Shown piece after piece: positions 51,883 through 55,220 of a stretch of 64,000 bases of DNA; position 1 is the first letter of the stretch; every line of letters starts with the position of its first letter. A program made the position numbers and the translations under genes. The DNA lies in assembly GCA_046328525.1 (NCBI GenBank), contig JAXLWK010000004.1, forward strand, positions 212,221-276,220. Direction: 5' to 3'. A model generated the notes under the pieces. It was given only the letters and a program-made list of their open reading frames with translations. It was not told the DNA's origin and made no database searches. The DNA is from Anaerolineae bacterium (GTDB lineage: Bacteria > Chloroflexota > Anaerolineae > Epilineales > JAHCIE01).

Positions 51883-52350
51883 ATGACCCTCACCGCTGAA
51901 GAGCTTCTGGCCGGTGGCGCGCTGACCCACGTCGTGGACCTACCGGCGGACCTGCTCAACACCCACGGCGGCGGGCCGGGCGGCCAGGTCATCCTGCGCC
52001 CGCTCACCGTGCGCGACCTCCAGCGCATCGGCAAGGCGGCCAGGGACGACGACAGCCTGTCCGCCGCGCTGATGGTGCAGCAGTCCCTCGTCGAGCCGCC
52101 GCTCAAGCTGGAGCAGGTCACGCAGCTGCCGGCCGGCGTGGCGCGCTTCCTCGTCGAGCGTGTCAACGCCATCAGCGGCATAGACACGCCCCGCGACGCC
52201 CTCGAAGAGCTGGTGCAGGCCCCGCTGGCGAAGGCGTGCTTCATCCTGGCCCGCGAGTTTGGCTGGACGCCCGAAGAGGTCAGCGGCATGACCATCGGCC
52301 AGATTCTGCTCTACCTGGAGATGGCCCGCGACGGGAGGGCAGGCGCATGA
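51883..52350 (+). CDS. Small protein in tail-assembly-chaperone position
   Basis: 155 aa between tube and the long Pro/Ala-rich protein. Stop/start ATGA overlap with the next gene. Confidence 0.3.
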   Translation: MTLTAEELLAGGALTHVVDLPADLLNTHGGGPGGQVILRPLTVRDLQRIGKAARDDDSLSAALMVQQSLVEPPLKLEQVTQLPAGVARFLVERVNAISGIDTPRDALEELVQAPLAKACFILAREFGWTPEEVSGMTIGQILLYLEMARDGRAGA

Positions 52351-53585
52351 GGCCGCGCCCACAGCCGCCGTTCCGGGCGGGCCTGGCCCTCGCCGCCTAT
52401 GGGCGGCAGATGGCGCGGCGCACCGCGTGGACCGCGTGTCTGATTCGCGGCAGCCGCTGGCTCGCGCCGCTCCTGGCTCCTCACCACCCGCTGCGCGCCG
52501 GCCCGCTGCTCGGACCGACCCTCGCCGCATTGGCGGCCGACGCCGATGGGCCGCCGGAGGAGCGGGCCGCGCCGCCCCGCCGCCAGGCGCAAGTGACGCC
52601 CACGCGGCCCGACGGGACCCCGCGCGGCCGCCCCGCCCCAATGGACACGGGGGCGGAGACGCCCGCCGCGTCCGGGACGCCAGGCCGCAACGCGGCGCGG
52701 GCCGCCGCTCCCCACCATCCGCCCGATGCTCCGACGCCTTCGCGCCTCGCTGCCCGCGTGGCCGAGCTGCCGCGCCAGGCGTCCCCGGCGCTGCTGGCAG
52801 GGTTCGCGGGCGCGGCGTCGCGGGCGGTGAGCCGCGCCCCACGGACCGACGCCCCCGGCGCGGCGTTGGGGCCGGGGAGCCGACTCCAGGCGGACGGCGT
52901 CGGTGGGGTCAGCCCCAGGCCGAGTGGCGTGGTCTGGCCGGCGGCCGACGGGCCGGCGGGCCGCGACTGGGCAGCGACCCCGATCGAGCGCGTGATAGGC
53001 GCTGTGCAGGCCGCTGGCGGTGGGCGCGACGCGGGACAGCTCCCCGTCTCAGCCGCGTCGTTCGAGGCGGCGTTGTCCACGCGGCTGGACGGCCCAACTG
53101 CGCCGCTGTTCGTTCTGACGCGCTCGATCCAGCTGGCGTCCGATGCGTCCGCGGGCGACGCCGCGCCGAACCGGGCGGAGGCGGCGGCAGCGCCCCCGGT
53201 ATCGGATGCCCCGCGCCCCGCGCCCCTGCCGAGTCCGCCGCCGGCGCGGCCCGCTACCAACCCGCCTCTGCGGACCGACGGCGGCGCGCCCTTCGCGCCC
53301 TCGCTGTGGGGGATGCTGGACTACCCAGTCGCGGCGTCGGCGTTCGCTCCGCCCGGACCGGACCCGGAGACGACGGTGCGCGTCGTCAACCCAACCCTGG
53401 CGCCGCGGCTGCCGTTCCTGACGCCCTCGGAGCCGGGCGGGCCGCCCGACCTGCCGCTGGCGGCGGCGACGGCGCGGCAGGGGGCATGGGCTGAGGCGGC
53501 GGGCGAGGACGACCTGGAGGCGTTGGCCGCGAAGCTCAAGCGCATCCTGAACGAGGAGGCGCGGCGGCATGGGATAGGGGTGTGA
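52347..53585 (+). CDS. Pro/Ala-rich low-complexity protein (412 aa) with a conserved-looking C-terminal helix; occupies the tape-measure position
   Basis: MRPRPQPPFRAGLALAAYGRQMARR... ...DDLEALAAKLKRILNEEARRHGIGV. Functional assignment is by position only. Confidence 0.35.
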   Translation: MRPRPQPPFRAGLALAAYGRQMARRTAWTACLIRGSRWLAPLLAPHHPLRAGPLLGPTLAALAADADGPPEERAAPPRRQAQVTPTRPDGTPRGRPAPMDTGAETPAASGTPGRNAARAAAPHHPPDAPTPSRLAARVAELPRQASPALLAGFAGAASRAVSRAPRTDAPGAALGPGSRLQADGVGGVSPRPSGVVWPAADGPAGRDWAATPIERVIGAVQAAGGGRDAGQLPVSAASFEAALSTRLDGPTAPLFVLTRSIQLASDASAGDAAPNRAEAAAAPPVSDAPRPAPLPSPPPARPATNPPLRTDGGAPFAPSLWGMLDYPVAASAFAPPGPDPETTVRVVNPTLAPRLPFLTPSEPGGPPDLPLAAATARQGAWAEAAGEDDLEALAAKLKRILNEEARRHGIGV

Positions 53586-54133
53586 CGATGCGACCGATGT
53601 TGGATGACCTGGAGCTGCCGCAGGTGCAGGAGATTGCGACCGTCGAGCGCCGTAGCCTGGCCGAGCACAAGCCGCCCGGCATGGACGGCAGCCTGTTGCA
53701 GAACCTGGGGCGGCGGCCGACGCGCCTGGCCCTGTGGGGCGTGGCGACCGGCCCCGACGCGCGGGCGTTTCTCGAAAAGCTCGACGGCAAGCTCCGCGAC
53801 GGCAAGCCCGTGCCGTTCACGGCCGACATCATCGCCGACGCCGCGATTGACCAGGTCGTGATTGACGATATGCAGGTACAGGAGCTGGCAGGAAAGCCGG
53901 ACCGCTTCGCCTACGTCCTCACGTTGCGCGAGTACATCGAGCCGGTCGAGCCGCAGGACACGTCGGCGCTGGACACGGACATCCTGGGCGCCGCGACGAA
54001 GCTCATCGAAGACATGGTGCCCGGCCTGGACCTGGGCCTGAACCTGACGACGGGCCTGGAACAGTTCATCGCCCCGTTGAGCGACCTGCTCGGACGCTTG
54101 CAGGCGGCCAACCGCAGCATGGGACGCAGTTAG
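53582..54133 (+). CDS. Tail-cluster protein, paralog A (unknown function)
   Basis: (V)TMRPMLDDLELPQVQEIATVERRSLAEHKPPGMDGSLLQNLGRRPTRLALWGVATGPDA... is homologous to 54594..55220. Confidence 0.45.
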   Translation: MTMRPMLDDLELPQVQEIATVERRSLAEHKPPGMDGSLLQNLGRRPTRLALWGVATGPDARAFLEKLDGKLRDGKPVPFTADIIADAAIDQVVIDDMQVQELAGKPDRFAYVLTLREYIEPVEPQDTSALDTDILGAATKLIEDMVPGLDLGLNLTTGLEQFIAPLSDLLGRLQAANRSMGRS

Positions 54134-54151
54134 AGAGAAGGAGCACGAGAC

Positions 54152-54574
54152 ATGGCAACGACACCGACCAACCTGTTCGAGGACCTGAAGTCGGCGCTCA
54201 CGACCTTCAAGACCTTCCTGGACCAGAACGTTCCGACCATCAAGCCCGCCATCCAGGCCCTGCGCTCGCTGATCCCGCAGATCACTGACCTGCTCAACAA
54301 GCTGGTGGACCTGATGAACAGCATCAAGACGGAAGTGGATCGCCTGGCGAGCCAGCCGATTCCGGGCGTGGACAAGGTGAGCCAGTTCACCCAGGGCATC
54401 ACGTCCCTGCTGACCACGGCCAAGAATCTGCTGCCCGACCAGGCCGGCACGATTGACGACGTGCTGTCGGTGGCCCAGGTCGTCGGCAGCCTGCCGTCGG
54501 TCGGCCAGATCAAGGCCGAGATTGACAGCCTGATTGACGCCGTCGTGACCCACCTGCGCAACCTGAACTCGTAG
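54152..54574 (+). CDS. Small alpha-helical protein (140 aa) in the tail cluster
   Basis: SD AAGGAG. MATTPTNLFEDLKSALTTFKTFLDQNVPTIKPAIQALRSLIPQITDLLNKLVDLMNSIKTEVDRL... Confidence 0.4.
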   Translation: MATTPTNLFEDLKSALTTFKTFLDQNVPTIKPAIQALRSLIPQITDLLNKLVDLMNSIKTEVDRLASQPIPGVDKVSQFTQGITSLLTTAKNLLPDQAGTIDDVLSVAQVVGSLPSVGQIKAEIDSLIDAVVTHLRNLNS

Positions 54575-54593
54575 TCTCGCGGCGAGGACTTCC

Positions 54594-55220
54594 ATGCCCC
54601 AGGCGCGCCCGATGCTCGGCGATGTCGAGCTACAGCAGGTTCAACAGCTCGAGGTCGAAAAGGACCAGGTCTTGACGCAGCACGCCGTGCCGGCGCTGGA
54701 GGGCGACTTCCTCCAGCGGCAGGGGCGGCGGGCGACGCGCGTCACCGTGGCCGGCGTCCTCACCGGCGACGCCGTCGCCGACGGCCTGAGCGCCCTGCGC
54801 AAGAAGTTCCGCGCCGCCGAGCCGGTCAGCTTCGTCGCCGACATCGCCACGGCCACGCGCGTGGACCAGGTGCTCATCGAGGAGATGGGCGTGCGCGAGC
54901 TGGCGGGCAAGCCGCAGCGCTTCGAGTACAGCTTCACACTGCGCGAGTTCATCCCGCCGCCGCCCACGAAGCGCGAAGAGCCGCCGCCCCCGCCGCCCCC
55001 GCCGCCCTCGGTGGAGACCGGCACGCTGGTGGTGGAAGTGACCGTCCAGGGGCAGCCCGACTTCGACATGGCCCGCCTGACCGTGACCGTCGAAGGCACG
55101 CAGGACGATGGGAATACGCTGTCCCGCACCTTAACAACCCGACAGAACAACGTCTGGACCGAGGAAAACGTCCCGCCCGGCAATTACACCGTCCGCGTGG
55201 TGGAGAACCCCGGTGGCTGA
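54594..55220 (+). CDS. Tail-cluster protein, paralog B, with poly-Pro linker
   Basis: MPQARPMLGDVELQQVQQLEVEKDQVLTQHAVPALEGDFLQRQGRRATRVTVAGVLTGDA... parallels paralog A, then EPPPPPPPPPS and a C-terminal beta-rich domain. Confidence 0.45.
   Translation: MPQARPMLGDVELQQVQQLEVEKDQVLTQHAVPALEGDFLQRQGRRATRVTVAGVLTGDAVADGLSALRKKFRAAEPVSFVADIATATRVDQVLIEEMGVRELAGKPQRFEYSFTLREFIPPPPTKREEPPPPPPPPPSVETGTLVVEVTVQGQPDFDMARLTVTVEGTQDDGNTLSRTLTTRQNNVWTEENVPPGNYTVRVVENPGG

Follow-up and report, generated by a model that had tools for sequence, protein, structure and literature searches.

What do the five open reading frames (ORFs) encode that follow the tube gene of a contractile-tail cluster in an Anaerolineae bacterium? 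The cluster lies in a stretch of 64,000 nucleotides of the assembly GCA_046328525.1 (contig JAXLWK010000004.1, positions 212,221 to 276,220), referred to here as the window. Positions count from its first letter unless a related locus is named. The original prediction described, between 51883 and 55220, an ORF of 155 amino acids (aa), an ATGA-coupled Pro/Ala-rich ORF of 412 aa, and two homologous ORFs separated by a helical protein of 140 aa, none of which it could match to a family. All five ORFs are present on the + strand, the ATGA coupling included. Their GC content at third codon positions (GC3) is 0.85-0.92, which is coding-type in this genome of 68% GC. We consider it likely that this region serves a Mu-like contractile tail as its core for tail assembly and tube initiation, the tail being carried on the chromosome with its own regulator and not as a prophage tail. 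Two identities had been missed: the 155-aa ORF is predicted to be a Phage_TAC_7 tail assembly chaperone (TAC), and the second of the homologous ORFs is half of a gene that has been split.

Scanning genomes with the family of this second paralog (paralog B) recovered 78 loci that share these genes and their order. The loci belong to Chloroflexota, Cyanobacteria, Acidobacteriota, Actinomycetota, Proteobacteria and one Methanotrichaceae metagenome-assembled genome (MAG). This shared gene order is far beyond chance. From the sheath to J, the order is collinear with gp39-gp47 of phage Mu: sheath, tube, chaperone, tape measure, tube initiator, hub, spike, gp25-like protein and J. The window reads chaperone, 412-aa ORF, paralog A, helical protein, paralog B with an ORF of 1332 aa, an ORF of 146 aa, hub and spike.

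The paralogous pair

Paralogs A and B are homologous, as had been seen by eye, with 47% identity over 116 aa (E=2e-34). The poly-Pro linker and the extra C-terminal domain described for paralog B are also borne out. The linker is PPPPPPPPP, and the domain is a beta-sandwich (residues 143-204) predicted with a local distance difference test score (pLDDT) of 94-97. Paralog A starts at a GTG with a 4-nucleotide overlap, or possibly at an ATG at position 53588.

Paralog B passes the gathering score of the Pfam family DNA_circ_N (23.8 vs 21 bits), the N-domain of Mu gp43. Across the family, DNA_circ_N is matched by 33 of 40 members (best 1.4e-6) and phrog_184, annotated "baseplate hub", by 31 of 40 (best 7.2e-8). 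A GpU-like PHROG is matched by 6 of 40, and a few members match Dit_like or Phage_P2_GpU. The paralogs are predicted to have a tail-tube-like beta-barrel fold. Their likeness values (unit not stated) are 8.7 for the diffocin baseplate tube protein, 8.6 for the phiCD508 LysM protein, 8.5 for both the Pam3 tube initiator gp17 and XM1 gp11, 8.4 for Mu gp43, 8.0 for both Milano gp25 and the Bas63 tube initiator, 7.9 and 7.3 for Pa193 ripcord-1 and ripcord-2, 7.7 for the PVC initiator, and 7.6 for both the Streptomyces contractile injection system (CIS) initiator and the pyocin R2 ripcord PA0626. Single-sequence searches of the PDB with A and B returned just poly-Pro and WD40-repeat noise. Both genes sit between the tape-measure candidate and a gpD/gp44-like hub, as Mu gp43 does. 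[quoted passage not shown] Pfam finds no LysM match in A, B or the 140-aa protein.

By family and fold, both paralogs are predicted to be tube initiators with a Mu gp43-type tube-like domain. Of the two roles first offered for the pair, tube initiation is the one that DNA_circ_N and phrog_184 speak for. Sheath initiation falls away, as a gp25-like gene lies further 3' (Table 1). The label of a "terminator position" is also best dropped, since solved baseplates label the gpU-type relatives that we found as ripcords or tube initiators.

A and B are both present in all 62 comparable loci. The median identity is 64% among A orthologues and 60% among B orthologues, compared with 43% between A and B, and 24 near-invariant positions are common to the two. 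In nearly every locus, paralog A stands alone, at a length of 169-191 aa. Since orthologues are closer to each other than the paralogs are, the duplication should predate the spread of the system. These identities indicate an ancient duplication, both copies of which have been kept in every lineage under similar constraints.

The split gene of paralog B and its fusions

In 64 of 69 related loci, the paralog-B ORF does not stop but runs on as a fusion of 480-1900 aa. The ORF listing of Paraglaciecola independently confirms this (10001-13669, 1222 aa). The fusion consists of the tube-like domain, a Pro-rich linker, an immunoglobulin-like (Ig-like) domain, OmpA, PG_binding_1 and a variable C-terminus. 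In the window, the parts from OmpA onward are found in the 1332-aa ORF (Pfam OmpA 5.9e-9, PG_binding_1 8.6e-8; weak Reprolysin_5, Peptidase_M78 and eCIS_core). Its GTG start is conserved and overlaps the stop codon of paralog B by 8 nucleotides. The feature, first taken to end at 55220, thus has to include this overlapping ORF. A protein-database search with paralog B listed almost only proteins of 204-240 aa, as against 480-1900 aa in the genome loci.

The window and its two nearest relatives (L001 and L002) have the split at one place, after the Ig-like part and before OmpA. The stop codons of the three genomes at this place are TGA, TAA and TGA. An indel of 10 nucleotides sets the split genomes apart from the fused locus L038, and another fused relative (P0002), 89% identical to paralog B, reads through the junction. 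Acidobacteriota show independent splits at the same domain boundary. In a more distant subfamily, paralog B stands alone at ~216 aa and has a helical linker, and a large variable protein comes next with a 4-nucleotide overlap; in Myxacorys, which belongs to this subfamily, the large protein is composed of beta-helix and TIG domains. From these comparisons, paralog B and the 1332-aa ORF are assigned as the two halves of a split gene. Because they are fused in most related loci, the two proteins would act as one unit by the usual gene-fusion argument. The split halves would associate non-covalently, and the large protein may be delivered.

Several loci (L020, L005, L018, L027 and L037/L062) carry two or three B-domain genes in tandem, some fused and some split. 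Each of these loci has one paralog A and one helical gene, and each B is followed by an OmpA-type region. The tandem genes bear on how A and B are arranged. In Pa193, a 3+3 ring of gp38 and gp39 sits on the trimeric hub and adapts the tube to it (PMC11456595). By analogy, we favor an A3B3 ring seated on the gpD-like hub. A conceivable but, in our view, somewhat improbable arrangement is a pair of homohexameric rings, one after the other, as in T4 gp54/gp48 or Afp7/Afp5. A and B have stayed 43-45% identical with their shared near-invariant positions since the duplication, which fits quasi-equivalent places in one ring. Six copies of an appendage of 1300-1900 aa would burden the baseplate by about 1 MDa, and tandem alternative B-fusions alongside a single A fit a ring with exchangeable B positions.

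The C-termini of the fusions vary widely. The fusion in Aulosira sp. (L003:10004-15574) ends in a vertebrate-type protein-arginine deiminase (PAD; PAD_M + PAD, E=1e-99), and that in the Methanotrichaceae archaeon MAG (L016:10001-15706) likewise ends in PAD_M + PAD (E=5e-90). In L053, the end is a beta-helix/TIG region. The paper on the transfer of PADI from cyanobacteria to animals mentions neither OmpA nor phage, secretion or toxin; these PAD enzymes may be payloads of this tail-like system. The 146-aa gene downstream was found by tblastn only in the 7 loci whose fusion shares the C-terminal region of the window. Its product has no family match in Pfam, PHROG or NCBIfam, and in Paraglaciecola a HEAT-repeat protein takes its place. 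It looks like a co-varying immunity or accessory gene, or a chaperone gene. The variable ends, the tandem B-fusions and this co-varying gene therefore point to exchangeable, effector-like ends rather than to a purely structural substitute for LysM.

We tentatively propose that one initiator paralog is a built-in carrier of polymorphic effectors, covalent in most lineages and non-covalent in the split ones, which would ride tip-proximally into the target. A disordered tape measure would be paired with this carrier. The exchangeable enzymatic ends would be metallopeptidase-like here, PAD in a cyanobacterium and an archaeal MAG, and beta-helix/TIG elsewhere. Such a cargo route, if it exists, would be distinct from lumen loading, spike or PAAR fusion, and cap attachment. 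The OmpA/PG_binding_1 protein could instead be no payload but a structural or anchoring part of the baseplate, equivalent to the LysM module of Mu gp43, Afp7 and Cis7. This is rather doubtful, and we regard as equally doubtful the variant in which the protein is a tail-associated wall hydrolase that only opens the target peptidoglycan. Both have to contend with C-termini that include enzymes with no obvious wall-opening role (PAD in L003 and L016; beta-helix/TIG in L053), with two or three different fusion versions in tandem in one locus, and with a small downstream gene that co-varies with the C-terminus. These three properties are typical of polymorphic effectors.

The chaperone and the tape-measure candidate

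The 155-aa protein matches Phage_TAC_7 with E=5.7e-4 and 20.3 bits, which is under the cut-off of 25. Among its orthologues, 14 of 26 match this family (E<0.01; best 8.4e-7) and no other family is matched. The ORF lies directly 3' of the tube gene, as in Mu, and the protein retains 60-95% identity across phyla. Its sequence places it, by prediction, in the gpE/gp41 chaperone family. The ATGA stop-start overlap with the 412-aa gene is conserved in most loci, and thus the two genes are expected to be translationally coupled. A programmed frameshift is unsupported, as the alternative frames of low-GC orthologues close at the gene end (slippery sites were not searched); in these orthologues, the frame of the downstream gene opens only at its own ATG. 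The 412-aa frame of the window is open further upstream (from 52236). This extension is a GC artefact, absent in low-GC orthologues, and a chaperone-to-ruler frameshift fusion was rejected.

NCBI lists the 412-aa protein, from an Anaerolineae MAG, as hypothetical. A homologue search returned itself and two relatives only, and orthologues were therefore gathered by synteny. A gene of this kind occupies the place in every locus and encodes 354-640 aa (median 431). The protein is just 53-56% identical in two genomes whose chaperone, helical protein and paralog B reach 93-96%; by this measure it evolves far faster than its neighbors. Its composition (A 22%, P 16%, R 10%, G 9%) had been taken as its defining property. 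However, composition tracks the genome: orthologues are rich in A/P/R/G in GC-rich hosts and in Q/S/K/N in Paraglaciecola and Kangiella. Because the low-GC orthologues are Q/S/K/N-rich, Pro/Ala richness was discarded as a functional signature.

What is conserved is the C-terminus, which reads DDLEALAAKLKRILNEEARRHGIGV. The motif DL..LA.KIKRILDEEARRHGIDV, covering the last ~25 residues, is the extreme C-terminus in 61 of 63 loci from six phyla. The last 12 residues have a mean column conservation of 0.84, against 0.12-0.5 elsewhere, and form the sole strongly conserved block; weaker islands occur near the N-terminus and at a few internal places. A profile of the orthologous C-termini finds nothing in the PDB, and by eye the C-terminus of the Mu tape measure is unrelated. 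In the tape measures of Pa193 and Mu, only the C-terminal helix and tail are ordered, and these are docked on the tip and hub (PMC11456595, PMC11915804). The conserved amphipathic C-terminus of the 412-aa protein would fit such docking on the hub and spike. The gene lies directly 3' of the chaperone and 5' of the baseplate hub genes, as tape-measure genes do.

An atypical, disordered tape measure outside the defined families, one of the two options originally left open for this protein, is plausible. Position, coupling and the conserved C-terminal helix fit it, although a family match is lacking. In our reading, which draws on position and analogy, the ends of the ruler would be constrained and its middle constrained mainly in length. 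It is unlikely that the protein is instead a disordered plug of the lumen, a disordered cargo, or a scaffold with just the same docking peptide at its C-terminus, with tail length set otherwise, for example by the 140-aa protein, which resembles tape-measure proteins (TMPs), or by a terminator. The missing family match, the low-complexity sequence (Pro/Gly-rich or Q/S/K-rich) and the very fast divergence would suit such a role. Tape-measure PHROGs are weakly matched by the 140-aa family instead (32 of 40 members), and a TMP-related effector is known from another CIS clade (PMC11126660). However, the gene is the sole one between chaperone and initiators in every locus, its length is held although the middle sequence is near-random, and both ends are conserved. 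The 140-aa protein, fixed at 138 aa and encoded between the initiators, is too short for the span of a tail.

The helical protein

The 140-aa protein was correctly described as helical: it is predicted to be an all-helical bundle of five helices with a pLDDT of 87. Its length stays at ~138 aa, and its gene is found between A and B throughout (66 loci). A first weak phrog_184 match suggested that it is gp43's detached helix-rich domain, but within the family only 1 of 40 members matches phrog_184, and this reading was demoted to one of three options. We prefer, from its position and with less than even confidence, a baseplate adapter or BH1a "glue" acting together with the C-terminal tail of paralog A. 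BH1a of simple baseplates is a small protein, encoded beside the tube initiator, that bridges hub and wedges.

Genomic context and distribution

A single contractile-tail cluster occupies the + strand between 43.9 kb and the window end (Table 1).

Table 1. Features of the tail cluster and its front genes, with window positions
Feature	Position	Strand	Description
BTAD/SARP-type regulator	43873-44913	+	Gene in front of the cluster
1012-aa GH25 lysozyme and Peptidase_C39-like protein	44990-48028	+	Between regulator and tail genes
365-aa gene	48390-49487	+	Directly 5' of sheath; kept in 55 related loci
Sheath	49907-51355	+	Pfam Phage_sheath_1 and Phage_sheath_1C
Tube	51368-51877	+	Weak Phage_tube_2 match
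Putative tail assembly chaperone, P2 gpE / Mu gp41 type, 155 aa	51883-52350	+	Phage_TAC_7
Tape-measure-position protein, 412 aa, candidate length ruler	52347-53585	+	ATG overlaps chaperone TGA (ATGA)
Conserved C-terminal motif DDLEALAAKLKRILNEEARRHGIGV	53508-53582	+	Proposed docking helix and tail for hub/spike
Paralog A, 183 aa	53582-54133	+	Tube-like domain (~1-120) and ~60-aa C-terminal tail
140-aa protein, five predicted helices	54152-54574	+	Between paralogs A and B
Paralog B, 208 aa	54594-55220	+	Tube-like domain (1-118), poly-Pro linker, Ig-like beta-sandwich (143-204)
1332-aa protein	55213-59211	+	OmpA-like, PG_binding_1, then region with two HExxH motifs
146-aa accessory gene (candidate)	59225-59665	+	Co-varies with C-terminal region of 1332-aa protein
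gpD/Mu gp44-like hub	59675-60751	+	phrog_52 E=1e-13, phrog_196 E=2e-12 (baseplate hub)
gpV-like spike	60748-61557	+	Pfam Phage_base_V 4.3e-6
Small PAAR-like ORF	61706-62083	+	Likeness by eye only; kept in 56 loci
gp25-like sheath initiator	62094-62567	+	Pfam GPW_gp25 1.3e-6
Baseplate-J-like gene	3' of gp25-like gene	+	Runs off window end

The upstream neighbors are housekeeping genes (GluRS, SerRS, FtsW), and no capsid genes are in view. With tblastn, paralog B has zero matches among 50,697 phage and 72,556 plasmid records, and the 155-aa chaperone has zero among the 50,697 phage records. The closest phage sheaths reach just 22-26% identity to the sheath of the window. Because of this housekeeping context, the lack of capsid genes in view and of close phage or plasmid matches, we read the cluster as a chromosomal, regulated tail-like machine, either a tailocin or similar to extracellular contractile injection systems (eCIS). 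A prophage origin of the cluster was rejected on the same context and the lack of matches in the phage and plasmid collections. A decaying prophage remnant, in which the split between paralog B and the 1332-aa ORF is pseudogenisation, is very improbable: the 10-nucleotide indel relative to fused L038 does change the frame and capsid genes are missing from view, but both halves are long intact ORFs with coding GC3, the split is retained by three genomes with different stop codons and a conserved overlapping GTG start, Acidobacteriota have split independently at the same boundary, and 78 loci, whose regulators are host-specific, keep the entire 20-kb cluster intact and in synteny.

The BTAD/SARP-type regulator also heads the loci of Chloroflexota and Actinomycetota. 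In the Paraglaciecola locus, its place is taken by a sigma-54 enhancer-binding protein (L022:2489-3505). The tail module is thus under host-specific control, with regulators that differ by host. The 1012-aa protein next to the regulator may be, judging from its domains, a release or lysis enzyme for the particles. Among the related loci, it has a homologue in the closest relative (L001) only. The 365-aa gene has no match in Pfam, PHROG or NCBIfam and is possibly a terminator or cap. The sheath and tube genes are both kept in 61 loci. For the small PAAR-like ORF, Pfam gives nothing at E<0.01. Matches in the PDB were limited to one weak match for the sheath, with none for the hub, the tube or the tape-measure candidate.

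The loci include cultured hosts, namely Paraglaciecola sp. MB-3u-78, Kribbella catacumbae DSM 19601, Actinopolymorpha alba DSM 45243 and Amycolatopsis minnesotensis JCM 14545. The contig labeled as a Methanotrichaceae archaeon MAG (L016; CAWDNX010000001.1, 880 kb) holds a complete cluster of a kind otherwise found in bacteria. This copy reflects either an inter-domain transfer or a binning or assembly artefact.

Proposed assembly

We propose the following assembly. The chaperone would hold the 412-aa protein, which would be the length ruler and whose conserved amphipathic helix and tail at the C-terminus would dock as a trimer on the spike and hub. Six tube-like domains from A and B would assemble on the trimeric gpD-like hub, most likely as one A3B3 ring, as in Pa193 gp38/gp39, with two stacked homohexamers as the alternative. 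This initiator ring would nucleate tube polymerisation along the ruler. Paralog B would tether the large enzyme, which binds peptidoglycan, to the end of the tube nearest the tip, covalently in most genomes and non-covalently here. Contraction would then bring the enzyme to the target envelope together with the hub and spike.

Several points weigh against this scheme. Paralog A is assigned through its paralogy with B, its own Pfam matches being sub-threshold (DNA_circ_N 15.2 bits, DUF6046) and its phrog_184 match having E=1.5e-3. Alignment of the paralog-B and helical-protein profiles with the single Mu gp43 sequence in hhalign gave nothing; a single-sequence template is probably too thin for this comparison, and we do not count the null result against homology. 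The 412-aa protein has no match in Pfam, PHROG, NCBIfam or the PDB, and its Pro/Gly-rich composition is unlike that of helical tape measures and argues against a continuous helix. Fold searches with the helical protein gave no specific structural match, and its family weakly matches tape-measure PHROGs (best 1.5e-4) and not the gp43-like phrog_184. The ring stoichiometry, the non-covalent pairing and the delivery are all steps that we infer.

The assignments give names and testable roles to five "hypothetical" proteins that are conserved in at least 78 genomes from six phyla, in a lineage of contractile tails that has no solved structure. If the tethering is true, a change of payload would be possible through an exchange of the C-terminus in a single initiator gene, which would be attractive for the engineering of injection systems, and cyanobacterial-type arginine deiminases would gain a biological context. 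If the 412-aa protein is a ruler, its sequence drifts almost freely while its length and two ends are kept, which bears on how tape measures measure. The interest of the locus stems mainly from the initiator-effector fusion and the disordered ruler candidate, both of which are testable in the cultured hosts.

Comparison with known systems

All parts of the system are standard in kind: a chaperone, a ruler, tube initiators and an adapter. The variant is unmatched in the solved structures and the literature searched, with its ancient initiator pair, paralog B as the N-terminal module of giant polymorphic wall-binding enzymes, and a non-helical ruler candidate that belongs to no family.

In Mu, gp43 (PDB 9ki1; PMC11915804) is the product of one gene and forms a homohexamer, with the helix-rich LysM domain as part of that chain. 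The window instead encodes two paralogs and, as a protein of its own, the helical one of 140 aa, and the wall-binding part is OmpA + PG_binding_1, followed by a variable enzyme of 0.3-1.5 kb-equivalent. Ripcord-1 and ripcord-2 of Pa193/E217 (gp38/gp39; PDB 9b45; PMC11456595) form a heterohexameric ring, and their sequence relationship to the paralogs is undetectable. Pa193 also possesses a homohexameric baseplate tube (gp37) and lacks a fused enzyme; a 3+3 arrangement would be shared with the paralogs only by analogy. P2 gpU and the pyocin R2 ripcord PA0626 (PDB 6u5b) combine both parts in a single chain. The P2-type systems have a separate small LysM protein, gpX, and neither a paralog pair nor an enzyme fusion.

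The initiators of eCIS (Afp7, Pvc7, Alg7 and Streptomyces Cis7; PDB 9gtp, 9qgl, 7aeb) contain LysM and are ~225 aa long, a description that the paralogs do not fit. Those systems have a VgrG-type fused hub-spike, whereas the window has separate gpD-like and gpV-like genes. Unlike in those eCIS, a phage-like pair of chaperone and tape-measure candidate adjoins the tube gene here. With the tape measures Mu gp42 and Pa193 gp41, the 412-aa protein shares its place after the chaperone, the C-terminal amphipathic helix with a short tail, and an unconserved middle. It is short compared with Mu (690 aa) and Pa193 (858 aa), and it is of low complexity and probably disordered rather than helical.

In the "evolved" Hcp, VgrG and PAAR proteins of type VI secretion systems (T6SS), a structural tube, spike or tip fold carries a variable C-terminal toxin. 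The system described here shares with them the presence of several alternative versions in one genome and of a small co-varying neighbor gene, which we regard as a functional analogy. The carrier here differs from that of the T6SS in being a putative tube initiator. A tube initiator as an effector carrier was not found described in the literature searched. A CIS of Streptomyces davawensis belongs to a clade that spans Actinobacteria, Proteobacteria and Chloroflexota and has a VgrG-like spike (PMC11126660). Its tape-measure-related effector Tme exceeds 2000 aa and combines transmembrane helices with DUF4157 and an EndA-like nuclease (PMC11126660). Compared by description only, the likeness lies in a large, mostly disordered protein that is encoded 5' of the baseplate genes and interacts with the tube initiator and spike. 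The S. davawensis CIS is thus conceptually close to the system described here, but it is built from different components.

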